Below the pieces are notes generated by a model, which made no database searches, was not told the origin of the DNA, and worked only from the letters and a program-made list of their open reading frames with translations. From positions 5,660 to 69,659 of the forward strand of contig SKQU01000127.1 in assembly GCA_007118855.1 (NCBI GenBank): a DNA stretch of 64,000 nucleotides, written 5' to 3'. A program made the position numbers and the translations under genes. Numbering within the stretch: the stretch's first letter is position 1; the number at the start of each line of letters is the position of its first letter. Source of the DNA: Spirochaetaceae bacterium (GTDB lineage: Bacteria; Spirochaetota; Spirochaetia; DSM-27196; SLST01). Positions 11,892 to 60,082 of the stretch are shown one piece after another.

Positions 11892-11992
11892 GGGTGGATT
11901 GTCCGTCACGGCATCGATTTGATCAAGCCCACCAGTTGTGGTACCCTCAGATCACTATCGGCCGGCTCTTTGCGGCCTTACCGTGAGGTTGT

Positions 11993-26771: not shown

Positions 26772-26781
26772 CCTGCTCTCC

Positions 26782-27924
26782 CTACGCCTTCACGCCGCCG
26801 GCGGCGGCCACCACGTGCTCCACCGCCTCGCCGAGCGACTGGTATGACTCGAGTCCCGCCCCTTCGAGGATCCTGCGCCCCTCATCGTCGTTCGTCCCGA
26901 TCAGGCGTATGACCATCGGCAGCTTGAGATCTATCTGAGCGAGCGCCTCGAGGATGCCGTTGGCGATGTCGTCGCACCGCGTGATGCCGCCGAAAATGTT
27001 GATGAGGATCGCCTCCACCCGGGGATTGCCCGTGATGATCTTAAGCGCGCTCACGACCTTCGCGGGATTGGAGCTGCCGCCCACGTCGAGAAAATTGGCC
27101 GGGTCGCCGCCGTAGAGCTTGATGATGTCCATCGTGGCCATCGCGAGCCCGGCGCCGTTTACCATGCACCCGATCGTCCCGTCCATGCTCACGAAGGAGA
27201 GGCCCGCGGCGTTCGCAGTCGTCTCGTCGGCCGAAAGCTCCTCCGGGTTGCGCAGCGCCTCCACCTCCGGGTGCTTGAACACCGCGTTGTCGTCGAAGTT
27301 CACCTTTGCGTCGAGCGCGACGAGCTTCTCATCCTCGACGAGCGCGTACGGGTTGATCTCGACGAGCGAGCAGTCCTTCTCCATGAAGATCCGGTAGAGC
27401 CTGTGCACCGCGTCCTTCGCCTGGCTCTGGAGGGTCGGTGTCTCGAAGACCTCGGCGAGCGCCGCCTCGAGGCCCGACTCGTCGATGCCGTCGGCCGGGT
27501 GGATGGGGAATCTGATGATCTCCTCGGGGCGGTTCACCGCGAGATCCTCGATGTCGACGCCGCCTGCCCGGCTCATCATCAGCAGCAGGTTGTTGTCGTT
27601 GCGGTTGACGGTGATCGAGACGTAGTACTCGCGGTTGATCTCGCTCGCCGGCGTGATCATCACCTTCTCGACGGGGATACCCTTGATCGTGAGCGCGAGG
27701 ATATCGCGCGCTCGAGCGTCGGCCTCCTCCGGCGTCTTCGCGATTTTCACGCCGCCCGCCTTGCCTCGGCCGCCCACGAGAACCTGCGCCTTCACGACGA
27801 CCGTGGTTCCCATCGCAGACGCCGCCTCCCGTGCGGCCTCCGGAGTCGTCACGATCGCCTGATCGTTGACCGGTATGCCGTACTCCTTGAAGATCTCCTT
27901 GCCCTGGTACTCGTGGATATTCAC
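26782..27924 (-). CDS. sucC: Succinyl-CoA synthetase beta subunit
   Basis: 380 aa, GTG start. [22 protein letters not shown]-grasp N-terminus, [11 protein letters not shown]. The start overlaps the sdhB stop (GTGA). Confidence 0.95.
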
Positions 27925-30430: not shown

Positions 30431-30536
30431 AGCCGACTCCTTTCCGGGGCGAAAGTCTACTGAATCTCTGTGAATATATGCCGCAGACGAAAGGAGGGGC
30501 AACCACCAGTGGCTGCCGGGTCGGTTTTCACCACCC

Positions 30537-30968
30537 ATGGTACCATGGGGCATGAGCGTCCACCAGACAACAGTCACGATTTCCCCGCAGCGTCGCGGGT
30601 GCCGGTTGATCACGCGCGAGATCCAGAGCGCGGTGTCCGGGCTCGACTTCACCGGCGACGGGCTCGCCCACCTCTTTCTCCAGCACACGTCGGCTTCGCT
30701 GACCATCAACGAGAATGCGAGTCCGGATGTCCGCTCAGACATGGAGAGCGTCCTGAACCGGATCGTCCCCGAGCAGTCGTCGTATCGTCACTCCATGGAG
30801 GGTCCGGACGACATGCCCGCTCACGCCAAGTGCTCGCTCTTCGGCGTAAGCCTGACGGTTCCGGTGTCAGGCGGGCGGCTCGCGCTCGGTACATGGCAGG
30901 GCATCTACCTCTGCGAGCACCGCTCGCAGGCTCCGCGTCGAACGGTCGTGATCACCGTGATGAGCTGA
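30537..30968 (+). CDS. YjbQ/UPF0047-family protein
   Basis: 143 aa (or from MSVHQ at 30552). Family-typical blocks [48 protein letters not shown]. Confidence 0.75.
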
Positions 30969-41827: not shown

Positions 41828-43555
41828 ATGGCACGGACCCCGGACCAGATCGGCAAGTACTCGATCGTCGATCAAATCGGCAAGGGTGGGATGGGGATGG
41901 TCTACAAGGCCGAGCACCCCACGCTCGACCGGCTTGTGATCCTCAAGAAGCTGAACATTTCCGGCGACCCGGTGATGCGCGAGCGGTTCCGTCGTGAGGC
42001 GGCGATCATGATCGACTTCCGCACCGACTACGTGGTCGACGTCTATGACCACTTCCGTCACGGGTCGTCGGACTACATCGTGCTCGAGTACATCGACGGG
42101 GTCTCGCTCGAGGAGATCCTTGCGCGCGAACGGTACCTGCCGAGCGATCTCGCGCTCTTCATCGCGCGCGACGTCTTTCGCGGGCTCGAGTACGTGCACG
42201 GCAAGGGCGTCGTGCACCGCGACGTGAAGCCGGGGAACGTCGTCATCGCCCGCGACGGCTCGGTGAAGCTGCTCGACTTCGGGATCGCCTCACGGGGCGG
42301 CGAGTTCCAGGACGAGCTGACGCGAGAGGGCATGACCCTCGGCACCGTCGCGTACATCGCGCCCGAGCAGATCGAGCGCAGTCGGGACGTGGACCGGCGG
42401 GCGGACATCTACTCGGCCGGCGCCACGCTCTACGAGATGGTGACCGGCGCGAAGGCGTTCTCCGGCGGGTTCAACCCGGAGACGGTCAACCGGATCCAGC
42501 GCGGCCGCTATCGCCACCCGCGGAGACTCAATCCCCGCGTCTCGCGGCCGGTTGTCAGGGTCATCAGGCGCTGCATGCGCCGCAAGCCCCGGCGGCGGTT
42601 CCAGCATGCCGCGGATGTCGTGGGGCGGCTCGACGCGCTCTTCCGCAGGGAGGACGAGGCGCGGATGCGCCGACGTCTTTCCGCGCTCGCCGAAGGCAGA
42701 CCCGAGAGCGTCGAGCGGCCGCGCCGGAAGCATCGCTCCTGGATGCGACCCGTCGTCGCGGGGGTGCTCATCCTGCTCGTCGCGGGGGCGCTCGCCTGGT
42801 GGACCGGCGAGGCTCAGGGCTTGATCCTCGGGCGCACGCACGCGCTCGTGCGCGCGGAGATACGCCTGCGCAAGACCGATCGCTCCGTGGACGAGCACCT
42901 GATCCGCATCGAGCTCGCCCGCGAGGAGAACGGCCGGTTTGCCGACGTGCCGTTGCGGTTGCCGTTGATGCGCACGGTCGACGCGCTCGAGACCCCTGAC
43001 TACGTCGTCGTTCGATCGCGCCTGCTGACCATGCCTGCCGGGCGCTACCGGGTGACGGTCGCCGTAGAGGATTCGGTTGACCGGAAGATCCTGACGCTGG
43101 ACTCCGTCGCCACTGCGGGCGAGACCCAGGTCATTGCAGTGCGATGGGACCCGGTTCCGCCGGCGTCGTTCACGCTCGATCTCGCGGTTCACGATGCCCG
43201 GACCGCAGCCCCGGTGGACGAGGTGAAGGTCGAAGCATGGCTGAACGATGAGTGGCGGGTGCTGAACCGACGAGGCACCGGCTGGGAGACTCCGGCGCGA
43301 ACGGACCCGGCTCGGCAGCTGACCGCGGACGGCGCGCTGACGGCGGACGGCGAGGAGATTCACCCGCTGCGGGGAATCGGATCGGCCTACCTCTCGTTGG
43401 CCCGCGCCGTGCGCTTCGCGCCGGGAGATACCGTGCGGCTGCGTCTAGCGCACCCGGACTACCATGAGGAGCAGGTCTCCCTGGAGACCGACCGCCTCAC
43501 GCGACAGGTCACGGTGGAGGTTGCGCTTCTGCCTCGCACCGAGGAGGAGAGATGA
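41828..43555 (+). CDS. Transmembrane Hanks-type Ser/Thr protein kinase with extracytoplasmic beta-rich (PEGA-like) region
   Basis: 575 aa. GKGGMGMVYKA, VILKKL (VAIK-like), HRDVKPGNVVI, DFGIAS, YIAPE. One TM (WMRPVVAGVLILLVAGALAWW) around residue 300, then about 250 aa outside. Confidence 0.9.
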   Translation: MARTPDQIGKYSIVDQIGKGGMGMVYKAEHPTLDRLVILKKLNISGDPVMRERFRREAAIMIDFRTDYVVDVYDHFRHGSSDYIVLEYIDGVSLEEILARERYLPSDLALFIARDVFRGLEYVHGKGVVHRDVKPGNVVIARDGSVKLLDFGIASRGGEFQDELTREGMTLGTVAYIAPEQIERSRDVDRRADIYSAGATLYEMVTGAKAFSGGFNPETVNRIQRGRYRHPRRLNPRVSRPVVRVIRRCMRRKPRRRFQHAADVVGRLDALFRREDEARMRRRLSALAEGRPESVERPRRKHRSWMRPVVAGVLILLVAGALAWWTGEAQGLILGRTHALVRAEIRLRKTDRSVDEHLIRIELAREENGRFADVPLRLPLMRTVDALETPDYVVVRSRLLTMPAGRYRVTVAVEDSVDRKILTLDSVATAGETQVIAVRWDPVPPASFTLDLAVHDARTAAPVDEVKVEAWLNDEWRVLNRRGTGWETPARTDPARQLTADGALTADGEEIHPLRGIGSAYLSLARAVRFAPGDTVRLRLAHPDYHEEQVSLETDRLTRQVTVEVALLPRTEEER

Positions 43556-44433
43556 GTCTGTTCATGCGGCGTATCATCGTGCTCGCGGCCGGGGTTGTGG
43601 GCGGGCTGCTCGCCTGGCCCTTCGCCGAGCTCCTGCTCGGCGCCCAGCCGGGCTTCCCCTCGTACCTGTTCTTCATGGTGACCACCGGCTCGGTCTACGG
43701 AGCCTTCTTCGGTCTCGCCTTCGGAAGCGTCGACGGCATTACCGCCGGCGTGGGCGCCAGGAAGTGGCTCGGACTCGGGACCGGAGCCGCCGCCGGCCTG
43801 CTTGCCGGGGCGACCGGTGTGCTCGTAGGTCAGGCGGTCTATCTCGCGCTTGGCCAGTACCTGCTGCAGCGGCCGGACGCCCGTCTCGCCGGCTTCGTGA
43901 TCGCGCGCGGGCTCGGATGGTCGGTGACGGGCGCCGTGATCGGCGCGGTGGAGGGGCTGCGGCTGCGCTCCGGGAAACGTGCCGGGATCGGCGCGCTCGG
44001 CGGTTTCGTTGGGGGGCTTTCCGGGGGGCTTCTCGTCGAGTACGGGATGCACGTGTTCGCGGATGCGTGGTGGGTCCGTCCGGTGGGCACCGTGGTGCTC
44101 GGTCTGCTGCTCGGGGCAGGCTTCGCGGCGATCGAGCGCGGGTTCCTGCTCGGGCGACTCGCGCTCCTGACCGGAGCCCTTCGCGGGCGTGAGTACCCGC
44201 TTCCTCCGGGCCGGACGACGATTGGAGACTCACTCGGCGACACGGTCACCATTGCCAACTACACCGAGGTCTCGCCGAGGCACGCGGTGGTGGTGGGCGA
44301 TCGGGCCGGGCTCAGGATCGAGCGGGGGCGCGGTGAGCTGCGGGTGAACGAGGAGCCGGTCGACCGGGCCGAGCTCAAGTACGATGATGTGATCGACGTG
44401 GGCACGGCACGCTTCTACCTGAAGCGGCCGTGA
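43552..44433 (+). CDS. Polytopic membrane protein with C-terminal FHA domain
   Basis: 293 aa, ATGA overlap with the kinase. Gly-rich TM helices (GLGTGAAAGLLAGATGVLVG, GIGALGGFVGGLSGGLLV). C-terminal FHA pattern GRTTIGDS...VSPRHAVVV...LRVNEEPV...DDVIDVGTARFYL. Confidence 0.8.
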   Translation: MSLFMRRIIVLAAGVVGGLLAWPFAELLLGAQPGFPSYLFFMVTTGSVYGAFFGLAFGSVDGITAGVGARKWLGLGTGAAAGLLAGATGVLVGQAVYLALGQYLLQRPDARLAGFVIARGLGWSVTGAVIGAVEGLRLRSGKRAGIGALGGFVGGLSGGLLVEYGMHVFADAWWVRPVGTVVLGLLLGAGFAAIERGFLLGRLALLTGALRGREYPLPPGRTTIGDSLGDTVTIANYTEVSPRHAVVVGDRAGLRIERGRGELRVNEEPVDRAELKYDDVIDVGTARFYLKRP

Positions 44434-44456
44434 CCGGACGGTCGAGGAGGTATCCC

Positions 44457-45863
44457 ATGATTCGACGGGCAATGATGCTGATCGTGCTCTGCGCCGCGGT
44501 CGCGGCGAGCGTCCCGGCCCAGCGCCTGGCGGTCGGCCAGATCGATACCGGCCGCCTCCTGTTCGGTCAGCGGGTCGACCTCTATCTGTCGCTCGACCTG
44601 CCGGCGGGCCGCACGATCGACCCGGAGCGTCTGGGAGAGCTTCTGCGCGTGTACGAGTCGGGTGACGGCAGACTGTACCACGAGGTCGACGCCGTACTCG
44701 ATGTCGTGCCGGTGCGCAGCCTTGACGCGCCGCTCTCCTTCTACATGCTCGTCGACTATTCCGGCAGCATGTACGATGAGCATGTGCCCGGAAGGCCCGA
44801 CCTTCGGCGCATCGACGCCGCGCGTCAGGCGATCCGTCACTTCGTCAACAACATCACCCACGAGCGGGACCGGGTCGGCCTCGCCCTGTTCGGCACCCGG
44901 TATCACCAACTCGCGCCTCCGGGCCGGGACAAGGCGCGCCTTGGTCCAATCCTCGACGACATCGAGCGGCCGCCTCGAGCCGAGGGGTATACCGAGCTCT
45001 ACGCCGCGCTCGTCGAGTCGGCCTCGGATGCGGCAGACATCGGTCGTCGGACCGTCATCGTTCTCTCCGACGGCGAGAACTACCCCTACTCGATCTACGA
45101 GGGCGAGCCGCATCCGGAGCACGGCGAGCGGCTGTTCACCTATACCGAGGCTGTTGATGCATTCCAGCGCGAAGGACTGAGCCTTTTCGCCATCCACTAC
45201 GGAGACGATGAGGAAGATCCGCACCTTGGGCGGATCGCCGAACAGACCGGCGGACGGGTGTACCGTGCCGTGACGACGGACGAGCTTGCACGGGTCTACC
45301 AGGACATCCGCTCGGTGCTGCTCGAAGAGTACCGGGTCTCCTACACCGCGACGATGATCCCGTCGCAGCGGCGCATCGTGCGGGTGACCTACCGTGACGC
45401 GGATGTCGACCTTCGCGTCGAGCGGCCGTACTTCGCCGGGACGCTTTTCGCCGGGCCAGAGGAGGCGCCCGCGCCTGCACCCATCATCGTGTTCCTCGCG
45501 GGGATCCTCGGTCTTGCGGCGCTTCTGGCGGTCGCCATACGGGCAGGCCGCGCCGGGACGAGTCTGGTGCTGCTCGATTCCGGGGGGGCCGCCGCGCTCT
45601 CGAAGACGGTTGTGCTCGGCGACGGGGAGACCGTGATCGGCGCGAGCCCGGACGCGGACCTGACGATCGCCGGGAGTCCGGCGGTCGGCGAACGGCACGC
45701 GGTCGTGACGTACGAGCCGAAGCGCGGCGAGTACACAATCGTCAGCGACACACCGGTCCGGGTGAACAACAAACCGGTGACCCGCAGGATCCTCAAGCGC
45801 GGCGACGTGATCAACATCGAGGGCACCGTCTTCGCATTTGATGAGCCTGACGAGAAGGAATGA
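44457..45863 (+). CDS. Signal peptide - vWA domain - TM - FHA domain protein
   Basis: ATG 44457 with RBS GAGGAGG. MIDAS residues VDYSGSM...GYTELY...LSDGEN. TM PIIVFLAGILGLAALLAVAI. C-terminal FHA (TVIGASPDADLTI...ERHAVVTYE...VRVNNKPV...GDVINIEGTVFAF). Confidence 0.8.
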   Translation: MIRRAMMLIVLCAAVAASVPAQRLAVGQIDTGRLLFGQRVDLYLSLDLPAGRTIDPERLGELLRVYESGDGRLYHEVDAVLDVVPVRSLDAPLSFYMLVDYSGSMYDEHVPGRPDLRRIDAARQAIRHFVNNITHERDRVGLALFGTRYHQLAPPGRDKARLGPILDDIERPPRAEGYTELYAALVESASDAADIGRRTVIVLSDGENYPYSIYEGEPHPEHGERLFTYTEAVDAFQREGLSLFAIHYGDDEEDPHLGRIAEQTGGRVYRAVTTDELARVYQDIRSVLLEEYRVSYTATMIPSQRRIVRVTYRDADVDLRVERPYFAGTLFAGPEEAPAPAPIIVFLAGILGLAALLAVAIRAGRAGTSLVLLDSGGAAALSKTVVLGDGETVIGASPDADLTIAGSPAVGERHAVVTYEPKRGEYTIVSDTPVRVNNKPVTRRILKRGDVINIEGTVFAFDEPDEKE

Positions 45864-45923
45864 GCGATCGAAAAGCGTCGGGCCCGGCAGACGACGGGGC
45901 GGTTCTCTGAGTACGTTCTTCCG

Positions 45924-47360
45924 GTGAACGGATCTGAGCCCACGAAGATACGCTACGGCATCGCGATCGCCGCGATCGCGGTTCTCGCCGCGTGCGCTCC
46001 TGAGATCGTGGAAGAGCGCTTCGAGCCCGCGACCTCGCATCAGGAGTACCGCGCCGCGCTCGAGCTCCTCGACCTGGACGACACGGCGCTCGGTCAATCG
46101 TGGATCGCCGCGGCCGAGGCCGCGGTCGCCGAGCCTCTGACCGTCGAGACACCCTTCGAGGAGGTTGTGCTCTTCGATCCCCATGAGCCGCGGGCGATCG
46201 GGTACGAGTTCGTCGCCGAACGCGGCCGGGCCGTAACCGTCTCCATGGAGACCGGGATCGAGCGCTACTACGCAGACCTCTTCCGGGTGGAGGCCGGATC
46301 CGGGCTCGTCATGGTCGCAAGCCGGCCCGCCGAATCCTCCGAAATCCGGTTCGAGCCGCGGCGCGACGGGCGGTATCTCCTTCGGGTGCAGCCGGAGCTC
46401 CTGCGTGGCGGTCGGGTGGTTGTCCGGATCGTCGCGACCGCCTCGCTCGCCTTTCCGGTTGAGGCGGTCGGGCCCGGGCAGATTCTGAGCTACTTCGGCG
46501 ACGGACGCGACGGCGGACTCCGCATACACGAGGGGGTGGACATCTTCGCCCCTCGCGGGACACCGCTTCTCGCGGCGAGCGATGCGGTGGTGCACCGTGT
46601 GGGGGTTCGCGACCGAGGCGGCAATATCGTCTCACTCTACGACGAGAAGCGCGACCTGTTGCTCTACTACGCCCATCTGGAGGAGCAGATGGTGCGGCAG
46701 GGCGAGCGCGTGACGGCCGGGCAGGTCATCGGTACCGTCGGCAATACCGGGAACGCGATCACGACGCCACCGCACCTGCATATTGGCGTCTATCAGGGCG
46801 GATGGCAGCACGCCGTGGATCCGTGGAACTACTTCGTCGATCCGCCGCTCACCGTTCCGCAACCGGCGCTGCACGAGGATCTCCTTGGATCGTGGCACCG
46901 TCTGGCGGCCGGGACCTCCTTGCGGGTCGGCCTGGAGGCGCCGGCCGTGGGGCCGCGCTGGATCAACCGGAATCCGCTCCTTCGAGTCGAGGGCGCCGGG
47001 GACAGCCGGGGGTCCGGCCGGTTGGAGAGCGCCGACGCCGGTTCCGTGACGCCCCCGATCCGCGACGCCGGCGGGACCCGCGACATGCCCGCCGACACTC
47101 CGCTTCTCGTCGTGGGGGCGGCAGGATCGGTCGTCCGGGTTCGAACGCCCGACGGCGATTACGGCTACATGGATCCGTCGCCGCTGGCCTCCGCGACCGA
47201 GATGCGTCTCCTCGAGCGCGAGGTCGGCCTGCGCGACCCGGTCACCGGCGATCTCTTCCGCCGGCTTTCCGGCGGCGGAGCCGTCGAGTACCTGGGGTCG
47301 TACGAGGGGCGGATCTACCTGCGCACCGAAGACGGGAGGGTCGGGTTCGTCGACGCTTGA
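45924..47360 (+). CDS. Lipoprotein M23 peptidase with extra N- and C-terminal domains
   Basis: 478 aa, GTG start. Lipobox IAVLAA-C. Canonical M23 motifs HEGVDIFAPRGTPL, YYAHLEE, PPHLHIGVY. C-terminal about 120 aa is SH3-like (VVRVRTPDGDYGYM...IYLRTEDGRVGFV). Confidence 0.8.
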   Translation: MNGSEPTKIRYGIAIAAIAVLAACAPEIVEERFEPATSHQEYRAALELLDLDDTALGQSWIAAAEAAVAEPLTVETPFEEVVLFDPHEPRAIGYEFVAERGRAVTVSMETGIERYYADLFRVEAGSGLVMVASRPAESSEIRFEPRRDGRYLLRVQPELLRGGRVVVRIVATASLAFPVEAVGPGQILSYFGDGRDGGLRIHEGVDIFAPRGTPLLAASDAVVHRVGVRDRGGNIVSLYDEKRDLLLYYAHLEEQMVRQGERVTAGQVIGTVGNTGNAITTPPHLHIGVYQGGWQHAVDPWNYFVDPPLTVPQPALHEDLLGSWHRLAAGTSLRVGLEAPAVGPRWINRNPLLRVEGAGDSRGSGRLESADAGSVTPPIRDAGGTRDMPADTPLLVVGAAGSVVRVRTPDGDYGYMDPSPLASATEMRLLEREVGLRDPVTGDLFRRLSGGGAVEYLGSYEGRIYLRTEDGRVGFVDA

Positions 47361-47371
47361 GGAATCCCCGG

Positions 47372-47950
47372 CTACGGCGCCGCGTGGTCTTCGATCGTCT
47401 CCACGATTGTTATGAAGGCGTCCTGGTCTATGACGCCTTCCTCGCGCAGCCATTCAATGCGCCTCCGCTCGAGCGGAGCCGGTCGAGCGACGTCGATCCT
47501 TGCGTACCGGTCACGCAGGTAGGCATCGCGACGGGCGAAGAGTGTACGGCGGAAGTCCACGTATTCCCGGCGCGTCGGTCGGCCCCACAGCAGTCGAAAC
47601 ACGCGACCGTCTGCGAGCGGATACACCTCGTAGCGAACTCCGGTGAGCCGGTAGGCCGCGTAGCATGCCCCGGCGACGAGCGCCCAGAGGATGGCGACCC
47701 GCGGGTCGAGGCTGACCAGAAAACCGAACGCCACCGTTCCGACGACCAGGATGCCGAAGTAGATCGCCACGTTACGGAAGAAGAGATTGGACCGATAGTA
47801 GTCGGTGGTCCGACGACACAGCAGTTCGTACGGTACTGCGGCCGAGCCTTCGCTGCCGCGAACCCTGGACGCGTAGGTGAACTGTGTGTCGTCGAGCTCA
47901 ACCCGGTACTCTTCCCTGCCGCGTCGCTGCTCGAATACGCGCTGGTTCAT
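47372..47950 (-). CDS. Two-TM membrane protein, function unknown
   Basis: 192 aa. Central hairpin VAIYFGILVVGTVAFGFLV / ILWALVAGACYAAY flanked by Arg-rich soluble segments. ATGA-type 4-nt overlap with the upstream gene. Confidence 0.45.
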   Translation of the reverse strand: MNQRVFEQRRGREEYRVELDDTQFTYASRVRGSEGSAAVPYELLCRRTTDYYRSNLFFRNVAIYFGILVVGTVAFGFLVSLDPRVAILWALVAGACYAAYRLTGVRYEVYPLADGRVFRLLWGRPTRREYVDFRRTLFARRDAYLRDRYARIDVARPAPLERRRIEWLREEGVIDQDAFITIVETIEDHAAP

Positions 47951-49053
47951 CGGTGGTTCCCTCTGCCCCGCTTCCCGGTTCTTCGCGCGCGGGCGCTACC
48001 AATCGCGGTGAAGGCACGCACCGCCGCGGACCGCACAAGTATCCCGGCTCCCGAGAGATAGAGGATCGGGATGAGGGTGGCTTCCGTCAAGAGCAATCCG
48101 GGCGGGGCCGCCGCGGAGGCGATCGCGACGGCGACCTGGGTGAGGGCCGCGATGCCGGCTACGGAGAGGACGAGCGCCATGGCGATACGGGCTGCCTGAA
48201 CGCGCCGCATCAGGCCCACGGTGAGCAGTGCGAAGACGATCAACTGGACGGTGTGGGTCACGAGGGAACTCGTGACTCCGCCGCCCGCCGTTCGGATCAC
48301 CAGCGAGAGCGACAGCAGAACCGCGCTCAGTCCGACCGAGAGGCTCCACAGGCGTCCGTCGTGGCGCAACGCCTGCTGGAGACGGGCGTACCGCTCAGGG
48401 CTGATCCACCGCGGCAGGCGTGGTGTGCGGCGTTCGGCCCGATCCGGCAAGGGCATCTGGACATGAGGAGGATCGGGGTGGAACGATGCGCCCGGGTAGA
48501 TTCGAAGCGGCGGGGGTACGCGGCTGGTGCTCGAGTCGGACTCGAGGAGCTGCGGATAGATGCCGTAGGGCCGGTCGGGCCCTACCATCGCGTCCACGAG
48601 GATCATGCGCCGTACCCGGTCAGGCACCCCGGCACGCGCTTCGATGAGGACCGAATCGCCGGGAACGAGGGTGACGTTTGCGGCAATCGGGTACCGGTAG
48701 TTCGGCACACCGGTACCCAGGTGCTGGCGCTGGATCGCGGTTGCGCCGAAGACGCCGCCCGGTTCGTCGGCGACGTAGATGACCTCGCCACCGGAGCTCG
48801 AGACCGTGGCCGGCACCACGTGCAACTCCGGATCGCGCAGGTCGTCATCGCTCTGGGAGTACTGGTAGAGCAACGTCAGCCCCGACTGTATGGGGACCGA
48901 CACCGTGTGATCGTAGGGGTTGGTGAGCGTGTACCGGACGATGATCTGCGGGCCGGGGGCGTCGCGCATGACCTCGATCGATTCCACACGTTTCTCGACC
49001 ACCTGTCCGTCTGCCGAGATGGGAGTGTAATACGAGCCCTCACCGCGAAACAT
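47947..49053 (-). CDS. Protein with N-terminal beta-rich soluble domain and C-terminal 4-TM region, function unknown
   Basis: 368 aa. No signal peptide. TM helices after residue 235 or so (LWSLSVGLSAVLLSLSLVI, QLIVFALLTVGLM, MALVLSVAGIAALTQVAVAIA, LIPILYLSGAGILV). Confidence 0.45.
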   Translation of the reverse strand: MFRGEGSYYTPISADGQVVEKRVESIEVMRDAPGPQIIVRYTLTNPYDHTVSVPIQSGLTLLYQYSQSDDDLRDPELHVVPATVSSSGGEVIYVADEPGGVFGATAIQRQHLGTGVPNYRYPIAANVTLVPGDSVLIEARAGVPDRVRRMILVDAMVGPDRPYGIYPQLLESDSSTSRVPPPLRIYPGASFHPDPPHVQMPLPDRAERRTPRLPRWISPERYARLQQALRHDGRLWSLSVGLSAVLLSLSLVIRTAGGGVTSSLVTHTVQLIVFALLTVGLMRRVQAARIAMALVLSVAGIAALTQVAVAIASAAAPPGLLLTEATLIPILYLSGAGILVRSAAVRAFTAIGSARARRTGKRGRGNHR

Positions 49054-53314: not shown

Positions 53315-55102
53315 CTACACGACCTGCCGGGCCACGTACTTCGTGTGCAGCAGGTGGTGGGAGCGTTCGCCGAGCGGTGCCTTCAGGTAGCGCTCGTAGA
53401 TCTCCGAGATCTGCGGGTTGAGGTGCGACTTGCGCAGCTCCTTCCCCTCGTCCTCGCGGTAGATCGCGGCGATACGCTTGCGCCGGACCTCGTCGGTCGT
53501 CATGCGCGGCTGCCCGCCGCCCCCAATGCATCCGCCCGGGCAGGTCATGATCTCGACGAAGTGGTACTCGCGCTGACCGCTCTTGATCTCTTTGATGAGC
53601 TGCGCTGTGTTGCCGAGCCCATGCGCGACTGCCACCTTGAGCTCCACGCCGTCGAGGAAGCTCCAGTCCGGAAGGGGATCCTCTATGACCAGCGACGCTT
53701 CCTTGATGCCGGCGAGCCCTGCCACCGGTTCGACGTGCAGATTCCCGGTCGGCAACTCGCGACCGGTCACGAGCTCCCACGCGGTGCGAAGCGCCGCCTC
53801 CATGACCCCGCCCGAGTTCGCGAAAATGTCCGCAGCACCCGAGCTCAACCCCATGGGGGCGTCCATCTCGTCGTCGGGCAGCGATCGGAAGTCGATGCCC
53901 GCGGAGGCGATCATCCTCCCGAGCTCCCGCGTCGTGAGAACGTAGTCCACGTCCCGGTAGCCGCTGGCATTCATCTCGTCGCGCGTGGCCTCGAACTTCT
54001 TGGCCGTACACGGCATCACCGACACGACGACCATCTTCTCCGGGTCCACTCCGGCCTGCTCGGCGTAGTAGGTCTTCGCCAGGGCGCCGAACATCTGTTG
54101 CGGCGACTTGCAGGTCGAGAGGTTGGGGAGCATCTCCGGGTAGAAGTACTCGGCGAACTGGATCCAGCCCGGCGAACAGCTCGTGAACTGCGGCAGCGCG
54201 CTGGGTCCGTGGTATCCCTCGGCCTTCCCGGTCAGTGCCGCCTTGAGTCGCATGAGCAGCTCCGTTCCCTCCTCCATGATGGTCAGGTCGGCGGTGAAGT
54301 TCGTGTCGAACACGGCGTGGAAGCCGATCTCGCGCAGCGCGCTCACCATCTTCCCGGTGACCAGCGTGCCCGGCTCGTACCCGAAGCACTCACCGAGCGC
54401 GGCGCGAACGGCCGGAGCGGTCTGGACGACCACGTGTTTCTCCGGATCGTCGAGCGCGCGCCACACACCCTCTATGTGGCTCGCCTCGCTGATCGCGCCG
54501 ACGGGGCAGACCGCGGCGCACTGGCCGCACTGGACGCAGGCGACCGAGTCGAGGTCCATGGCGAAGGCTGGTCCGACCACCGTGTCGTATCCCCGGTACT
54601 GGGGAAAGAGCGCGCCGATCTGCTGCACCTCGTTGCAGACGGTGACGCATCGGCGGCATTTGATGCACTTGCCGGAGTCGCGGATGAGCCCCGGTGTGCT
54701 CGTGTCGAGAACCGACGGGACGCGTTCGCCCTCGTACTCCGGCGCTTCGATCGTCAGATCGTGGGCGATCTCCTTCAGCTCACAGTCCACGCTGCGGTCG
54801 CAGTACTGGCAGTTCCCCTCGTGTTCGCTCAAGAGCAGATCGATCACCGTTCGGCGAGACTGCCGCGCACGGCGGGAGTTCGTGTTGACGACCATGTTGT
54901 CCGTCACGGGCGTTGCGCAGGCGGCCTGGAGTGTCCGCGCGCCCTCAACCTCAACGACGCAGACCCGGCAGGCGCCGAGCGGCGCCCGGTGCTCGAGGAA
55001 GCAGAGGGTGGGAATGGACACCCCTGCCTGCCGGGCGGCGTCGAGTATGGTCGACCCTTCGGCGATCTGAACGTCTTTTCCGTTAATCGTCACGTTATAC
55101 AC
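53315..55102 (-). CDS. hydA: [FeFe]-hydrogenase catalytic subunit (CpI-like M3 architecture)
   Basis: 595 aa. N-terminal 2Fe-2S (CxxxxxxxxxxCxxC), His-ligated 4Fe-4S (HEGNCQYCDRSVDC), 2x 4Fe-4S (CIKCRRCVTVC; CVQCGQCAAVCP). H-domain motifs FTSCSPGW (variant L1), MPCTAKKFE, EIMTCPGGCIGGGGQP. Confidence 0.9.
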   Translation of the reverse strand: MYNVTINGKDVQIAEGSTILDAARQAGVSIPTLCFLEHRAPLGACRVCVVEVEGARTLQAACATPVTDNMVVNTNSRRARQSRRTVIDLLLSEHEGNCQYCDRSVDCELKEIAHDLTIEAPEYEGERVPSVLDTSTPGLIRDSGKCIKCRRCVTVCNEVQQIGALFPQYRGYDTVVGPAFAMDLDSVACVQCGQCAAVCPVGAISEASHIEGVWRALDDPEKHVVVQTAPAVRAALGECFGYEPGTLVTGKMVSALREIGFHAVFDTNFTADLTIMEEGTELLMRLKAALTGKAEGYHGPSALPQFTSCSPGWIQFAEYFYPEMLPNLSTCKSPQQMFGALAKTYYAEQAGVDPEKMVVVSVMPCTAKKFEATRDEMNASGYRDVDYVLTTRELGRMIASAGIDFRSLPDDEMDAPMGLSSGAADIFANSGGVMEAALRTAWELVTGRELPTGNLHVEPVAGLAGIKEASLVIEDPLPDWSFLDGVELKVAVAHGLGNTAQLIKEIKSGQREYHFVEIMTCPGGCIGGGGQPRMTTDEVRRKRIAAIYREDEGKELRKSHLNPQISEIYERYLKAPLGERSHHLLHTKYVARQVV

Positions 55103-58100
55103 GGAGTTCCTCCCGGACTGGTTCTACCTGGGCCGCTGCCGGCTTTCCGTAATCGCAGCGCAGGCAACGCTTGGCCTGGCGCAGGGCGACCGCCTCGCAC
55201 CAGGATTGTTCAACCTCGTCGAAGTTATGACGCCGTCGTCCGACTTCGATCGTCTGATACGGCTCTCGCGGATACGGCGCAGGGTCGGCCTCGGAGTCGA
55301 ATGCGGTGTCGATGGTCTCTGCCTTGCGCCAGAAGGCATGCGACTCTCCCGTCAGGTACAGATCGATTCCGACCGCGGCTCGCTCTCCGGCGGCAATCGC
55401 CGTGACTACGGAGGCGGGTCCGCTCGCCGCATCACCGCCTGCAAAGATCCACGGCACGCTCGTCTGGCCGGTCAGCGGATGGATGCCGATGAAGCCGTCG
55501 GGGGTCATCTCGAGCTCGCTCCCGAGCGCCAGGTCGGGCTGCACGAGCGGCGTGAGATCGAGTGTCTGGCCAATCGCCACGATGACCTGGTCCGCCGGCA
55601 GCTCGAATTCGTCGTGCTCGGAGCGCTGCGGCCGGCGTCGTCCCGAACGGTCGAACTCGCCGAGTGTCATGCGGGCGCACGTGATCGTCCGTGCCTTGCC
55701 TTCCTCGTCCACGTTGACCCGAAGCGGCTGGGTCAGGTCACGGAGCTCGACGCCTTCGTGCAGCGCTTCTTCGATCTCCTCGGCGTAGGCCGGCATCTGC
55801 TCGCGCGTGCGGCGGTAGATGACCGTGACCGTTTCGGCGCCGAGCCGAAGCGCGGTGCGTGCCGCATCGATCGCGGCGTTGCCGCCACCGACGACGACCG
55901 TGTTCTTGCCGACCGGAACCGAGCCGCGGATGTTGTACTGGCGCAGGTAGTCTCCTGCGAGGACCACCCCGTCGGCGTCCTCTCCCGGTACTCCCATGGC
56001 CTGGCAGCCCGGGGCTCCCACGCCGAGGAAAACGGTGTCGTACCCGTCGTCCTGCAGGCTGCCGAGGGTGAAGTCGCGGCCGAGCGCGGTTCCCGTCCGG
56101 ATTTCGACGCCGAGCTGCTCGATCATGCGAATTTCGCGCGCGAGCGTCTCGCGCGGAAGCCGGTACGCGGGAATCGTCTGAACGAGCATGCCGCCGGGTC
56201 GGGACTCGGCCTCAAAGACCGTGGGGCGGTACCCGAGGCGCGCAAGGAAGTACGCGCAGGAGAGGCCCGCGGGCCCCGCGCCGACGATCGCGATCTTTCG
56301 TTTCTCGTTCTCCGGCGATTCGCGGACCTCGGGCGTCTGGATGACGACTTCCTGGTCAACCATGAACCTCTTGACCGCGCGGATGGCTACCGGCTCGTCG
56401 AGCGAGGATCGTCGGCAGTGGTCCTCGCAGGTGTGGAAGCAGACCCGGGCGCAGACGGCCGCGAAGGGATTGCGCTCGCGGTGTACCTGCAGCGCCTCCG
56501 CGTACCGCCGTTCGGCGATCAGGGAGACGAAGCCGGGGACGTCCACGCCGGCCGGACACGCGCTCTGGCAGGGTGCGCGTACCAGCCCCGGGCAGACTCC
56601 TGCCTCGCAGTGCTTCTCCCGGATGTGCGCCTCGTACTCGTGGCGGAAGTGACGAATCGTGGAGAGCACGGGATTGGGCGCCGTCTGTCCGAGCCCGCAG
56701 AGCGAGGTGTCCTTGATCCGCTCTCCGAGTTCGATGAGGCGGTCGATATCGTCCGGTCTGCCGTGGCCGGAGGTGATTCTGTCGAGGATTTCGAGCATCC
56801 GCCGTGTGCCGACGCGACACGGGACGCACTTCCCGCACGACTCCTCCTGGACGAACTCGAGGAAGTAGCGCGCCACGTCGACCATGCAGGTCTCGTCGTC
56901 CATCACGATGAGTCCGCCCGAACCCATGATTGCTCCGAGCTCCTGGAGCGACTCGTAGTCGAGCGGAATGTTCAGATGCTCGCGCGGCACGCAGCCGCCG
57001 GAGGGGCCGCCGATCTGTGCGGCCTTGAATGCGCGTCCGCCCCGGACGCCGCCGCCTATGTCGTAGATCAGCTCACCAAGGGTCGTGCCAATGGGAACCT
57101 CAACGAGACCGGTATTCTCAACGGCTCCCGCGAGCGCGAAGACCTTCGTGCCGGGGCTGTCAGCGGTCCCGATAGCCCGCCATTGTCCTCCGCGCGTCAT
57201 GATGGCGGCGACATTGGCGTAGGTCTCGACGTTGTTCAGGACGCTCGGCCTTCCCCAGAGCCCTTTCTGGGCGGGAAAGGGCGGTCGCGGGCGCGGCTCG
57301 CCGCGCTTGCCTTCGATCGAGTTCATCAGTGCGGTCTCTTCTCCGCAGACGAAGGCGCCTGATCCCTTGCGGATCTCCAGGTCGAACGAGAACCCGCTGC
57401 CGAGGATATCCTCGCCGAGCAGCCCGTATTCGCGGGCCTGGCCGAGTGCGACCTCGAGCCGCTCAATGGCAAGCGGGTACTCGGCGCGAACGTAGACGAA
57501 CCCGCGGACTGCGCCGATCGCCCGTGCGGCGATCGTCATTCCCTCGATCAGGCTGTGCGGATCGCCTTCGAGAATGCTGCGATCCATGAACGCGCCGGGA
57601 TCACCCTCGTCGGCGTTGCAGATCACGTACTTCGCACCGTCCTCCGACTGCGCGTCGCGCGTGAACCGCCACTTCATCCAGGTGGGAAATCCGGCGCCTC
57701 CGCGTCCCCGCAGGCCGGATTCCCTCATCCGCTCGATGATCGCGTCGGGGTCGAGCTTCAGGGCCTCCGCGAGCGCCGCGTACGCCTCATGCGAGATCGC
57801 ATCGTCAATACTGCCCGGGTCCACCGTACCGCAACGTGCAAGGACCGTGCGCGTCTGCGCGTCGAGGAAGGTCTGCACGTCGTCGACCGCATCCCGTTCC
57901 TTGCCGGACAGCGCCTCCTCGATGATACGGTCGATGTCCTGCGGCTCCACATGCGTGTAGCTTCGGCCGGAGGGCAGGACCGTGACGACCGGGCCGCGCG
58001 AGCACGGCCCCATGCAGCCGGTCCCCACGAGCTCGACGGTGCCGTTGCGTTCCGCCAACCGCGCCCGCAGGCGCTCGAGCACCTCGTCGGCCCCTGATGC

Positions 58101-58220
58101 GATACAGCTCGCGCCCATGCAGACACGAAACCGGTGTTCGCACCGGGCCGCGTGCCTGGAACGCTCATCCCGCAGGCTGTGGAGGTCGGCCTGTGTGTTG
58201 ATTCGTCGGTTCGCGCTCAT
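55095..58220 (-). CDS. hydB: HydB-like NuoF-type flavoprotein fused to a GltD/NfnB-like FAD/NAD(P)H oxidoreductase module
   Basis: 1041 aa. N-terminal Trx-like 2Fe-2S (CMGASC...GCMGPC). NuoF motifs GRGGAGFPTWMKW, ICNADEGDPGAF, ESCGKCVPCRVG. Then a GltD-type Fe-S segment (CQSACPAG...CARVCFHTCEDHC), FAD fold IAIVGAGPAGLSCAY and a second Rossmann VVVGGGNAAIDAAR. ATGA overlap with hydC and an 8-nt overlap with hydA. Confidence 0.85.
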   Translation of the reverse strand: MSANRRINTQADLHSLRDERSRHAARCEHRFRVCMGASCIASGADEVLERLRARLAERNGTVELVGTGCMGPCSRGPVVTVLPSGRSYTHVEPQDIDRIIEEALSGKERDAVDDVQTFLDAQTRTVLARCGTVDPGSIDDAISHEAYAALAEALKLDPDAIIERMRESGLRGRGGAGFPTWMKWRFTRDAQSEDGAKYVICNADEGDPGAFMDRSILEGDPHSLIEGMTIAARAIGAVRGFVYVRAEYPLAIERLEVALGQAREYGLLGEDILGSGFSFDLEIRKGSGAFVCGEETALMNSIEGKRGEPRPRPPFPAQKGLWGRPSVLNNVETYANVAAIMTRGGQWRAIGTADSPGTKVFALAGAVENTGLVEVPIGTTLGELIYDIGGGVRGGRAFKAAQIGGPSGGCVPREHLNIPLDYESLQELGAIMGSGGLIVMDDETCMVDVARYFLEFVQEESCGKCVPCRVGTRRMLEILDRITSGHGRPDDIDRLIELGERIKDTSLCGLGQTAPNPVLSTIRHFRHEYEAHIREKHCEAGVCPGLVRAPCQSACPAGVDVPGFVSLIAERRYAEALQVHRERNPFAAVCARVCFHTCEDHCRRSSLDEPVAIRAVKRFMVDQEVVIQTPEVRESPENEKRKIAIVGAGPAGLSCAYFLARLGYRPTVFEAESRPGGMLVQTIPAYRLPRETLAREIRMIEQLGVEIRTGTALGRDFTLGSLQDDGYDTVFLGVGAPGCQAMGVPGEDADGVVLAGDYLRQYNIRGSVPVGKNTVVVGGGNAAIDAARTALRLGAETVTVIYRRTREQMPAYAEEIEEALHEGVELRDLTQPLRVNVDEEGKARTITCARMTLGEFDRSGRRRPQRSEHDEFELPADQVIVAIGQTLDLTPLVQPDLALGSELEMTPDGFIGIHPLTGQTSVPWIFAGGDAASGPASVVTAIAAGERAAVGIDLYLTGESHAFWRKAETIDTAFDSEADPAPYPREPYQTIEVGRRRHNFDEVEQSWCEAVALRQAKRCLRCDYGKPAAAQVEPVREELRV

Positions 58221-58765
58221 TCGGCAACTCCTTCTGTGACCAGATCCGTCTCGTGCTCCTCGTTCTCCTCCTCGCGGTACGAGGCGAGTAGCTCGCGGAC
58301 TCGAGCGGGTTTCACCCGTTGATGCACGTCGTCGTCGACCATCACAACCGGCGCAAGCCCGCAGGCGCCGAAACAGCGTCCGATCTCGAGCGAGAAGAGG
58401 CGATCCTCAGTCGTCTGACCGACCTCGATTCCGAGCTCATGCCGCAGTGCGGCGAGCACTTCCTGTCCTCCGCGGACATAGCAGGCGGTGCCGAGGCATA
58501 CCCGGATGAGGCGGCGCCCGCGAGGGACGGTCGAGAAGAACGAGTAGAAGGTCACCACCCCCGCAACTTCGCTGAAGGGAATGTCGAGTCGCCTGCTGAT
58601 GTGGCGGATCACCTCGTCCGGCAGGTACCCGAAGAGCTCCTGCGCCCGCTGGAGAGCCGGGATGAGCAGTCCCTTGACATCCTTTCGCTCGTCAATGAAG
58701 CGGTCGAGCTCGGCAAGCTTGACCTGGTCCACCTCTTCGGCACACTGGTTGTTCTGCCGCACCAT
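58217..58765 (-). CDS. hydC: NuoE/HydC-like thioredoxin-fold [2Fe-2S] subunit
   Basis: 182 aa, RBS AAAGGAG. LIPALQRAQELFGYLP, CLGTACYVRG...CFGACGLAPV cysteine pattern. Confidence 0.85.
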   Translation of the reverse strand: MVRQNNQCAEEVDQVKLAELDRFIDERKDVKGLLIPALQRAQELFGYLPDEVIRHISRRLDIPFSEVAGVVTFYSFFSTVPRGRRLIRVCLGTACYVRGGQEVLAALRHELGIEVGQTTEDRLFSLEIGRCFGACGLAPVVMVDDDVHQRVKPARVRELLASYREEENEEHETDLVTEGVAE

Positions 58766-58832: not shown

Positions 58833-58895
58833 GTCGGTAATCTATTATCGATATAACCGAATCGATATCCTCAAATCGATACTACATGAACGATA
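58833..58895. promoter_or_regulatory. Array of 14-bp-phased ATCGATA repeats upstream of the hydrogenase operon
   Basis: GTCGGTA 58833, ATCGATA 58847, ATCGATA 58861, ATCGATA 58875, AACGATA 58889, giving an exact 14-bp spacing. It lies in an AT-rich 138-bp gap, 68-130 nt upstream of the hydC start on the minus strand. Confidence 0.5.
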
Positions 58896-58903
58896 AGAGA
58901 ATG

Positions 58904-60082
58904 TCAAATGGTATCCGGCCTCTGTCCTGCGGCGAAGTACGCCTCGATCTCGCCCGCCAGCGGTGGTACGCGTCGCAGCCCGTTGTCCGTCCGCAGTGAG
59001 TCCGTTGCCATCACGCCGGCGGCAACCGCGTACCGTGCGGCGACCGGCGAGGTATTGGGAGGCGTCCCGTTGCGGAGAAAGTCCACGAAACTCCGGACGA
59101 TCGCCGGGTCCGACCCGCCATGGCTCCCCGATTGGGGGCGCATCGCAATCGTCTCATCGGGCTCGCTCCGGCCGCCGGACCTCGTCGTGTAGAGATGAAC
59201 CGCGCAGCTTCCCGAGTCGCCGAAGTTCTCAATCCGTCCTTCGGTCCCGATGAAGGTGTAGTTGCGCCAGTAATCGGGCGTGTAGTGGCACTGGACGTAC
59301 GAGGCCTGGACGCCGTTGGCCAGCTGCATGAGCACCATGGTGTGGTCTTCAACGTCGATCTGCGGCGAATAGTCGTCGGCGGCCAGCGGCGGCCAGTTCT
59401 TTGAGTCGATCGACACGGACATCGTCTCGCCCGGTTCTCTGCGCCGGGCACGGTTGTAAACGGAGAGCTTGCCCATGGACACGACCGCCTGCGAGTAGCT
59501 TCCCGCGAGCCAGTGGATCACGTCGATGTCATGAGCTCCCTTCTGCAGGAGCAGTCCGGTCGTGTTTTTCCGCTCGGAGTGCCAGTCCTTGAAGTAGGCA
59601 TCGCCTCCAATCCCCACGAAGTGGCGGCACCAGACCGCCTCCAGGCGCCCGATCCTGCCGGAGTCAAGGAGGCGCTTCATCGCGAGGACCGCCGGGAAGT
59701 AGCGCATGTTGTGGCCGAGGTAGAGCCGACTGCCGGTTCGCATCGCGGTCTCAAGGATCCGGTCGGCGCCCTCGATTGTGATCGCAATCGGCTTCTCGAG
59801 GTAGACCGCCTTCCCGGCCTCGAGCGCCGCGGTCGCGTGCGATTCGTGCAGGTGGTCCGGGCTGCAGACGAAGACGCCGTCGAGGTCGTCCCGTTCGACG
59901 AGCTCCCGGTAGTCCGAGGTCACAAAGCGATCGGGCCCGTGCTTCTCCCGGAACCGCTCCAGTGCCTCCGGAACGACGTCCGCGGCCGCGACGAGCCGGC
60001 TTGCCGGGTCGACATCCTCCACACAGGAGGCGAGAGAGCCTCTGCCCCCGGGACCGATCACGCCGAAACGTAATGCTTCCAT
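58904..60082 (-). CDS. Gfo/Idh/MocA-family NAD(P)-dependent oxidoreductase
   Basis: 392 aa. N-terminal Rossmann FGVIGPGGRG, EKP motif (VYLEKPIA), C-terminal alpha/beta dimerisation domain. Confidence 0.85.
   Translation of the reverse strand: MEALRFGVIGPGGRGSLASCVEDVDPASRLVAAADVVPEALERFREKHGPDRFVTSDYRELVERDDLDGVFVCSPDHLHESHATAALEAGKAVYLEKPIAITIEGADRILETAMRTGSRLYLGHNMRYFPAVLAMKRLLDSGRIGRLEAVWCRHFVGIGGDAYFKDWHSERKNTTGLLLQKGAHDIDVIHWLAGSYSQAVVSMGKLSVYNRARRREPGETMSVSIDSKNWPPLAADDYSPQIDVEDHTMVLMQLANGVQASYVQCHYTPDYWRNYTFIGTEGRIENFGDSGSCAVHLYTTRSGGRSEPDETIAMRPQSGSHGGSDPAIVRSFVDFLRNGTPPNTSPVAARYAVAAGVMATDSLRTDNGLRRVPPLAGEIEAYFAAGQRPDTI

Follow-up and report, generated by a model that had tools for sequence, protein, structure and literature searches.

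The hydCBA operon

The stretch of DNA analysed here (the window) is a 64-kb piece of contig SKQU01000127.1 from a Spirochaetaceae bacterium (assembly GCA_007118855.1). On its minus strand lie three genes, hydC, hydB and hydA, which encode a HydABC-type [FeFe]-hydrogenase whose HydB subunit ends in a GltD-like flavin module. Coordinates given below are those of the window, whereas residue numbers of HydC, HydB and HydA refer to each protein's own chain. The genes are as follows.

58217..58765, minus strand: hydC, 182 residues; NuoE-like, with the thioredoxin-like [2Fe-2S] cluster C1
55095..58220, minus strand: hydB with the gltD-like module, 1041 residues; ATG start and a single uninterrupted frame
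53315..55102, minus strand: hydA, 595 residues; GTG start, H-cluster subunit of the M3 type

The three genes follow one another in the order C-B-A with overlapping ends, the start of hydB overlapping the stop of hydC by 4 nt and the start of hydA overlapping the stop of hydB by 8 nt. A preliminary description of this DNA, made from the letters and their open reading frames, had proposed this overlapping HydC/HydB/HydA layout, and both the gene calls and the profile matches agree with it. An independent gene caller returned the same three products in three other assemblies, and the 1041-residue HydB is identical in four independently assembled contigs, including those of the metagenome-assembled genome (MAG) assemblies GCA_007124615.1 and GCA_007132295.1. 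The GC content at third codon positions (GC3) is 0.78-0.88 across hydCBA, like that of the surrounding genes, with a value of 0.82 cited for the fusion product.

The preliminary description had warned that hydB and a gltD-like gene might have been joined by a frameshift or an assembly error. We reject this explanation, and with it that of a decaying pseudogene, as having next to no chance of being correct: the product is the same in four assemblies, its family extends to at least 583 species genomes with conserved synteny, the junction is invariant and GC3 is normal. From its sequence, then, hydCBA is almost certainly a functional chromosomal operon for a HydABC/Bfu-type [FeFe]-hydrogenase, of the published variant called 'sub-type I BfuABC'.

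The HydB core and its hinge

Pfam profiles match HydB in the order PF01257 (residues 26-102), PF01512 (166-338), PF10531 (361-409), PF10589 (448-532), Fer4_20 or PF14691 (535-624) and PF07992 (642-945). Conservation was assessed in an alignment of 41 homologues of 1022-1069 residues that are 66-85% identical, in which all residues of the clusters, the flavin mononucleotide (FMN)/NADH site, the hinge, the flavin adenine dinucleotide (FAD) site and the GGGN and YRR motifs are invariant. The features of the core and hinge are listed here.

57915..58145, minus strand: N-terminal thioredoxin-like [2Fe-2S] domain, residues 26-102 (PF01257); ligands C34, C39, C69 and C73, all invariant
57207..57725, minus strand: FMN/NAD(H) domain, residues 166-338 (PF01512, 1.5e-47, 161.7 bits); motifs invariant
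Motifs of the FMN domain: GRGGAGF 172-178, CNADEGDPGA 201-210, GEETAL 293-298
56625..56879, minus strand: [4Fe-4S] B1 domain, residues 448-532 (PF10589, 2.8e-36, 123.7 bits); C462, C465, C468 and C508 invariant
56577..56627, minus strand: hinge EYEAHIRxKHCEAGVCPGLV, residues 532-548; H532, C538 and C543

The SLBB domain (PF10531) scores 30.1 bits against a cutoff of 27. For the N-terminal [2Fe-2S] cluster the Adams nomenclature uses 'B5' and the Mueller/Schuller nomenclature 'B2'; its four ligands and the hinge residues H532, C538 and C543 are the same in all 41 homologues. Every element of the Bfu core as defined in PMC9304861 is thus present in HydB, namely the Nuo51-type FMN domain (IPR011538), the SLBB domain (IPR019554), the NuoF-type [4Fe-4S] domain (IPR019575), the N-terminal [2Fe-2S] cluster and the His and Cys residues of the hinge. 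The solved HydB/BfuB subunits cover residues 30-548 only. The best match among them is HydB of Acetobacterium woodii (7q4v_B; E 7e-207), followed in order by Acetomicrobium mobile NiFe-HydB, Csac NfnB, StnB and the Thermoanaerobacter kivui and Thermotoga maritima subunits. Across these residues the core is intact, as had been supposed.

In canonical HydB the hinge site is occupied by Zn2+ or by cluster B2. The present hinge aligns residue by residue with HydB of A. woodii, T. kivui and A. mobile and with StnB, and the likeness to HydB stops at about residue 548, at the motif EYEAHIRxKxCxAGxCxxL. Since the likeness ends at this motif, the domain swap begins exactly at the hinge. In the canonical enzyme this loop's conserved Cys and His bind Zn2+, and the loop leads into the ferredoxin-like B3/B4 domain (PMC10021017).

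The C-terminal module of HydB

The ferredoxin-type motif CxxCxxCxxxC is absent from HydB and from all 41 family members. Fer4_20 is the only Pfam match of this kind in HydB, with no match to a ferredoxin-type Fer4 domain, and the B3/B4 domain (IPR017896) of the Bfu definition, with its two CX2CX2CX3CP motifs, is lacking. Because the motif is missing from HydB and its relatives alike, the canonical C-terminal ferredoxin-like domain has been replaced, not merely supplemented. What has been swapped in is a part of about 490 residues that is predicted to bind FAD and NADP(H), whose two [4Fe-4S] sites sit in a DPD_II-type fold. The Pfam matches and the missing ferredoxin motif bear out the earlier suggestion that an Fe-S, FAD and NAD(P)H unit stands in place of the ferredoxin-like end. 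The features of the module are the following.

56349..56576, minus strand: Fe-S subdomain, residues 549-624 (Fer4_20, PF14691, 5e-22)
55386..56297, minus strand: FAD and NAD(P)H Rossmann domains, residues 642-945 (PF07992, 1.5e-32; PF00070)
Rossmann motifs, all invariant: GAGPAG 647-652 (FAD), R687, GGGNAAID 778-785, Y802-R803-R804, GGD 928-930
55146..55262, minus strand: permuted tail, residues 987-1025, ...RRRHNFDEVEQ...RQAKRCLRCDYG; supplies the CxxC pair C1019/C1022

The Fe-S subdomain aligns with NfnA, StnC and NfnB, and its residues C551, C555, C590, C594, C598, C602 and K617 are all invariant. With C1019 and C1022 of the tail this gives eight invariant cysteines, from which two [4Fe-4S] clusters are predicted, with K617 also in the site. 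We considered C538 and C543 as ligands of the module clusters and excluded them: these two belong to the hinge of all canonical HydB subunits, and the tail supplies the missing CxxC.

The tail matches segments that are N-terminal in Pf NfnL (10-47) and Tm NfnB (14-43). Further matches, to StnC 493-566, Csac NfnA 510-567 and Tsi NfnA 555-594, are to segments that follow the FAD domain on its C-terminal side. Each match by itself is weak (E 0.014-0.3) owing to the small size of the segment, yet its motif does not vary across the family, the conserved residues being F1000, E1002, V1003, E1004, R1018, C1019, L1020, R1021 and C1022. The placement of the segment points to a circular permutation that the HydB module has in common with StnC and both NfnA proteins. 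Position 617 is an invariant Lys that aligns with StnC K170, a ligand of the FAD-adjacent cluster, whereas NfnB and NfnL have Glu there. The permuted tail and the Lys ligand together indicate that the module belongs with the Stn/Nfn-Bfu type and not with NfnB or GltD. The ranking of matches from residue 549 onward runs from Tsi NfnA (1.6e-82) through Csac NfnA, StnC and Tm NfnB to Pf NfnL, with DPD and GltD more distant. Thus, of the 'complete GltD-type unit' first proposed for this region, the Fe-S, FAD and NAD(P)H parts are all there, including the GAGPAG and GGGNAAID motifs that had been noted, but the unit is not plain GltD and is instead of the circularly permuted Stn/Nfn-Bfu type.

Two further features concern the flavin and nucleotide sites. 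R687 corresponds to StnC R239 and NfnB R201, an Arg near the flavin N5, and the stretch YRRT..MPA is identical to that of the NADPH-using proteins NfnA, StnC, NfnB and NfnL. From the GGGN and YRR motifs we infer an NADPH site with a preference for NADP(H).

One NCBIfam profile of 566 positions, PRK12771 ('NAD(P)-binding protein'), spans HydB residues 502-1022 (window 55155-56717) and so covers the end of the NuoF four-helix bundle, the hinge and the entire module. Its score of 482 bits is below the cutoff of 516. The match suggests that stand-alone proteins made of the hinge and the permuted module may exist.

HydC and HydA

HydC matches PF01257 at residues 21-163 (1.3e-48), in keeping with the NuoE-type subunit (IPR002023) of the Bfu definition (PMC9304861). 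The ligands of its [2Fe-2S] cluster C1 are C90, C95, C131 and C135, and the Shine-Dalgarno-like sequence AAAGGAGA stands upstream of the hydC ATG.

HydA passes the NCBIfam profile NF040763 ('[FeFe] hydrogenase group A6') with 865 bits against a cutoff of 765, a curated threshold for the multimeric NADH-linked group of [FeFe]-hydrogenases. It also matches PF02906 (2e-95) and PF02256, and its closest solved relatives are HydA1 of A. woodii and T. kivui (E about 1e-175). The following sites were located in it.

[2Fe-2S] cluster: C34, C45, C48, C62
His-ligated [4Fe-4S] cluster: H94, C98, C101, C107
Two ferredoxin-type [4Fe-4S] clusters: C146-C156, C189-C199
H-cluster motifs: TSCSPGW 307-313, MPCTAKK 363-369, MTCPGGC 519-525

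With the H-cluster motifs and the M3 set of accessory clusters complete, HydA has the hallmarks of a group A3-type catalytic subunit ('A6' in NCBIfam), and HydA and HydC are both ordinary.

The L1 motif TSCSPGW (window 54164-54184) has Ser310 in place of a Cys ligand of the H-cluster [4Fe-4S]. The active HydA1 of A. woodii carries the equivalent Ser (Ser301; PMC10021017), so that this ligand is common to the two proteins, and the substitution is frequent in several BfuA sub-types (PMC11406978).

Distribution of the fusion

The preliminary description had called for a survey of how widespread the fusion is. A scan of one genome per species found relatives in at least 583 species genomes, and a protein database holds at least 120 clusters of proteins of about 1040 residues at 65-85% identity. 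The best 80 of the at least 583 relatives are all full-length, and they come from Spirochaetota, Fibrobacterota, Verrucomicrobiota, Kiritimatiellia, Lentisphaerae, Planctomycetota, Bacteroidota, Ignavibacteria/Kapaibacteria and Hydrogenedentota. The closest species representative, with 92% identity over HydB residues 1-740, is a MAG of Spirochaetales that was obtained from soda-lake sediment, and the window itself most likely stems from a spirochaete of a soda lake. The gene order hydC-hydB-hydA is kept in every related locus with enough contig, in at least eight phyla.

In seven of the 80 related loci a canonical HydABC set lies directly beside the fusion-type operon. These second sets are located as follows.

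L015, 7878-11872: second canonical set
L042, 874-5168: second canonical set
L051, 11909-15147: second canonical set
L058, 6915-10213: second canonical set
L061, 11775-15130: second canonical set
L072, 1-2363: second canonical set, ending at the contig edge
L076, 432-4011: second canonical set

The HydB proteins of these neighbouring sets are about 45-54% identical to the fusion type and are without the FAD/NADPH domains; a second hydC was detected only in L015, L042 and L076. The presence of canonical HydCBA beside the fusion operon in seven loci suggests that the two types are not redundant and do different jobs. In another locus, L056, the fusion operon is followed downstream (11876-14544) by a GltD-like gene of its own, 39% identical to residues 539-952, and then by a second hydC-like gene, which may be a split or alternative layout of the parts of the fusion.

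Beyond hydCBA itself, no neighbour is universal among the 80 related loci. Genes near the operon include a Rex-like redox-sensing repressor in nine loci (for example L061, 11062-11703, and L030, 3332-3820), a CBS-domain protein in ten and a sensor kinase/response regulator in nine. None of these three kinds of gene adjoins the operon in the window.

Control region and genomic surroundings

Upstream of hydC is an AT-rich spacer of 138 nt, which contains the following feature.

58846..58907, minus strand: putative control region of the operon; promoter-like TTGACA-17-TAGTAT overlapping three ATCGAT palindromes

The three palindromes are spaced by exactly 14 nt, at -119, -105 and -91 from the hydC ATG, and four of the seven TATCGAT matches in the window fall within the 36-nt stretch of this array. 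The closest relative (L009, another species) has four ATCGAT copies with the same spacing. We regard the array as a candidate operator for a regulator; a search of the window upstream of hydC gave no sequence resembling a Rex box.

The operon stands amid housekeeping genes, among them those for a ClpB-like protein, seryl-tRNA synthetase (SerRS), topoisomerase IV, release factor 3 (RF3), succinyl-CoA ligase, a fumarate-reductase-type flavoprotein and FloA/NfeD. The flavoprotein, of 681 residues and the fumarate-reductase/succinate-dehydrogenase type (28697-30742, minus strand), is encoded near both subunits of succinyl-CoA ligase (25899-27924, minus strand), which hints at a fumarate/succinate branch in the fermentation of the organism. 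Several long open reading frames of 399, 792, 293, 726, 192 and 368 codons have no Pfam match at E <= 1e-8 but show a strong coding signal (GC3 0.73-0.85); they lie at 21152-24729 (minus strand), 43552-46595 and 47372-49053.

Relation to described enzymes

The architecture of this HydB was published in 2024, so that the novelty implied in the preliminary description was overstated and the present operon is a further member of a described variant. Zheng and Huang (mSystems 2024; PMC11406978) sorted the BfuABC hydrogenases of Hydrogenedentota into five sub-types, and the fusion layout is their 'sub-type I BfuB', in which the B3/B4 domain is replaced by a DPD_II domain (2x[4Fe-4S]) and an FAD/NAD(P) domain. 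The HydA of this sub-type belongs to the M3a type and carries Ser in the P1 motif, and the genes run in the order C-B-A; reports of the sub-type cover Spirochaetota, Planctomycetota, Verrucomicrobiota, Kiritimatiellota and Hydrogenedentota, and BfuD is usually missing (PMC11406978). Our operon agrees with this definition without essential difference and adds another member from a Spirochaetales MAG; its source assemblies are not in the supplement of PMC11406978. The same authors speculated that the FAD serves as a second centre of bifurcation and stated explicitly that no biochemistry exists. Likewise, Greening et al. (Cell 2024; PMC11216029) noted that in archaeal group F hybrid [FeFe]/[NiFe] hydrogenases HydB bears a glutamate-synthase ('GltA') domain, and guessed that ferredoxin is the partner of this domain. 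By description, which is the only basis of this comparison, these enzymes resemble ours in having a NuoF-like HydB with a glutamate-synthase-type domain, but they differ in being five-subunit complexes with a HydA-HyhS fusion and an [NiFe] large subunit (PMC11216029). In their survey of Bfu enzymes, Schut et al. (2022; PMC9304861) demanded a ferredoxin-type 4Fe-4S domain in BfuB, which would exclude the fusion variant, and they do not mention that variant. Descriptions of the permuted, Lys-ligated module type and of its placement at the low-potential exit were not found in the literature examined.

Compared with canonical HydABC (A. woodii 7q4v, T. kivui 8a6t and T. maritima 7p5h), HydA, HydC and residues 30-548 of HydB are alike. 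The canonical HydB, however, has at its end a ferredoxin-like domain with 2x[4Fe-4S], by which ferredoxin is reduced, where the present protein has the FAD/NADP(H) module. The closest solved versions of that module are in StnABC/NfnABC (Nfn-Bfu; 8oh5, 9bov and 9n5u), which have the permutation, the Lys ligand, the YRR motif and a BfuBC-type core in common with our enzyme. In those complexes the module is inserted in an H-cluster-less HydA-like subunit, as part of a mid-potential input branch, while B3/B4 remain in the B subunit. Our enzyme, in contrast, carries the module on its B subunit, at the low-potential exit, together with a HydA that has a true H-cluster, an arrangement outside the definition of these transhydrogenases. 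The difference in topology from the transhydrogenases, noted in the preliminary description, is confirmed by the position of the module in the HydA-like subunits StnC (8oh5_C) and NfnA (9bov_A and 9n5u_A). The large subunit of NfnAB/NfnSL (4ylf and 5jca) is homologous too, with 2x[4Fe-4S], FAD and NADPH, but NfnB/NfnL is unpermuted, has Glu at the proximal cluster and is joined by an NfnA/NfnS partner that gives the FAD a second outlet. We found no NfnA/NfnS-like partner ([2Fe-2S] and FAD, FNR-like) in the operon or within 10 kb, which sets the system apart from NfnAB/NfnSL. Finally, Syntrophus aciditrophicus and Syntrophomonas wolfei have non-bifurcating, NADH-dependent HydAB(C) enzymes (PMC7311640), [FeFe]-hydrogenases that are likely linked to nucleotides and independent of ferredoxin, as we propose for the present enzyme; their HydB, however, is without the N- and C-terminal clusters and has no FAD module.

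A proposed reaction

In HydABC, electrons pass from the H-cluster through B1 to the FMN, where NAD(P)+ is reduced, while a low-potential branch runs from the N-terminal [2Fe-2S] cluster and C1 to B3/B4 in HydB's C-terminal domain, where ferredoxin docks (PMC10021017). Deletion of that domain cripples the ferredoxin branch and bifurcation (PMC10021017). The FAD of StnC, on the other hand, does not bifurcate; it is a port for NADPH and supplies a linear chain of clusters (PMC10482914). For the present enzyme we propose the following. H2 would be split or made at the H-cluster, electrons would travel via the clusters of HydA and B1 to the FMN, and the FMN would exchange hydride with NAD(H). A second branch would lead from C1 through the two [4Fe-4S] clusters of the module to the FAD, replacing the canonical route from C1 through B3 and B4 to ferredoxin, and the FAD would exchange hydride with NADP(H). 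The FAD would thus act as a plain two-electron/one-electron converter, as in StnC, and not as a second bifurcation site. The enzyme would have three terminals, H2, NAD(H) and NADP(H), with no need for ferredoxin, and its net reaction would be:

2 H2 + NAD+ + NADP+ <-> NADH + NADPH + 2 H+

We put the chances at about even that the identity of the enzyme and this ferredoxin-independent coupling of H2, NAD(H) and NADP(H) hold as one statement. For the reaction taken alone, in which H2 is coupled to NAD(H) and NADP(H) jointly and without ferredoxin, the sequence evidence allows an estimate from a little below even to even. That the enzyme is a confurcating/bifurcating hydrogenase with NADP(H) as the low-potential and NAD(H) as the high-potential partner is a more tentative proposal, and one that we consider rather unlikely. 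The N-terminal [2Fe-2S] cluster and the hinge, which are lost in non-bifurcating relatives, are invariant here, and this suggests continued coupling of the two nucleotide reactions.

The cellular potential of NADPH is about -380 mV. That of NADH is quoted as about -280 mV (PMC9304861). For joint oxidation of NADH and NADPH the mean of -330 mV corresponds to a computed H2 ceiling of about 140 Pa at pH 7, compared with about 3 Pa for NADH alone. With joint oxidation, fermenters would therefore be able to get rid of NADH as H2 at pressures reaching about 140 Pa instead of about 3 Pa, and in the reverse direction H2 above that level could hold the NADPH pool strongly reduced.

Several points weigh against the proposed reaction. 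The preference of the module for NADP(H) is predicted from motif identity, and at the FMN site, for which no reliable sequence determinant of nucleotide preference is available, HydB of T. kivui uses NADP+. Under standard conditions both acceptors lie near -320 mV, so that energetic coupling would not be obligatory. An AlphaFold2 model of the 1041-residue HydB chain, made with the 41 homologues, has a predicted local distance difference test score (pLDDT) of 72.7 and a predicted template modelling score (pTM) of 0.55. In this model, however, the Fe-S subdomain (541-630) and the tail (965-1041) have pLDDT below 50 and the placement of the module on the core is not readable; ferredoxin might still dock on the module, as on NfnL, and the distal cluster of the module might lie outside electron-transfer distance of C1. 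No hydEFG maturase genes are present within the window, and activity of HydABC in this organism therefore presumes maturases encoded elsewhere in the genome. The searchable literature yielded genomic descriptions only and no characterised HydB-GltD orthologue, hence also none with the simple NADPH-dependent activity that had been named as a result at odds with bifurcation.

Given these points, other readings have to be weighed. In the homologous subunit of NfnSL, the path to ferredoxin runs through the two [4Fe-4S] clusters. The present enzyme might accordingly use four substrates, with ferredoxin docking at the distal [4Fe-4S] cluster of the module and NADPH serving as an extra entry or exit, so that a hydrogenase and an Nfn-type transhydrogenase would be merged. 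The homology of the module to Tm NfnB and Pf NfnL, whose clusters lead to ferredoxin, is consistent with such an enzyme, as are the fully kept bifurcating core and the guess that ferredoxin is the acceptor at the archaeal GltA domain (PMC11216029). But HydB no longer has its Lys-rich domain for ferredoxin docking, any wiring requires that the distal cluster point towards the HydBC core, and in modules of the StnC/NfnA type the clusters pass electrons inward rather than to ferredoxin. We consider a four-substrate enzyme improbable, though worth keeping in mind.

A similarly low probability attaches to an uncoupled NAD(P)H-dependent hydrogenase with two independent nucleotide sites, resembling the Syntrophus/Syntrophomonas HydAB(C) enzymes with an NADPH port added. 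Ferredoxin-independent NADH hydrogenases do exist (PMC7311640), the ferredoxin domain is absent here, and since NAD+ and NADP+ both lie above H2 under standard conditions, coupling would be unnecessary. Known non-bifurcating HydB homologues, however, have shed the N-terminal [2Fe-2S] and hinge clusters (PMC9304861), whereas C34, C39, C69, C73, H532, C538 and C543 are invariant across phyla in the present family, suggesting that the gating machinery is still used. The proposal of PMC11406978 that the FAD of the module bifurcates as in NfnB/NfnL, beside the FMN-FeS centre, has in its favour the homology to these bifurcating subunits and the conserved Arg near flavin N5 (R687), but we regard it as very unlikely, because a bifurcating FAD needs two one-electron outlets and no NfnA/NfnS-like partner was found within 10 kb, and because the Lys ligand of the proximal cluster, as in non-bifurcating StnC and not Glu as in NfnB, and the permuted tail of the StnC/NfnA type both argue against a second bifurcating FAD.

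Implications

Electron-bifurcating hydrogenases set the H2 thresholds and the redox balance of anaerobic communities, and how they gate electrons is debated. The variant described here is a natural domain swap on the bifurcation mechanism, in which the ferredoxin exit has given way to what is probably an NADPH-flavin module while the rest of the core is kept. Its at least 583 species representatives belong to Spirochaetota, the Planctomycetota-Verrucomicrobiota-Lentisphaerota-Kiritimatiellota group, Fibrobacterota, Bacteroidota/Ignavibacteriota and Hydrogenedentota. Should the variant catalyse a reaction other than that of canonical HydABC, annotations such as 'bifurcating, ferredoxin-dependent HydABC' or 'NuoF' would be wrong for many genomes. 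Several cultured carriers exist, which makes the reaction directly testable; candidates are Sediminispirochaeta bajacaliforniensis, Alkalispirochaeta sphaeroplastigenens, 'Ca. Marispirochaeta associata' JC231, Syntrophus gentianae, Desulfotignum balticum and, provided that the match in a MAG also applies to the cultured strain, Victivallis vadensis. If the more tentative proposal of a ferredoxin-independent confurcating/bifurcating hydrogenase is correct, no earlier Bfu-type enzyme would have had a pyridine nucleotide in the place of ferredoxin on its low-potential branch, and many fermentative and H2-consuming anaerobes would possess an H2-buffered, direct valve between their two nicotinamide pools.

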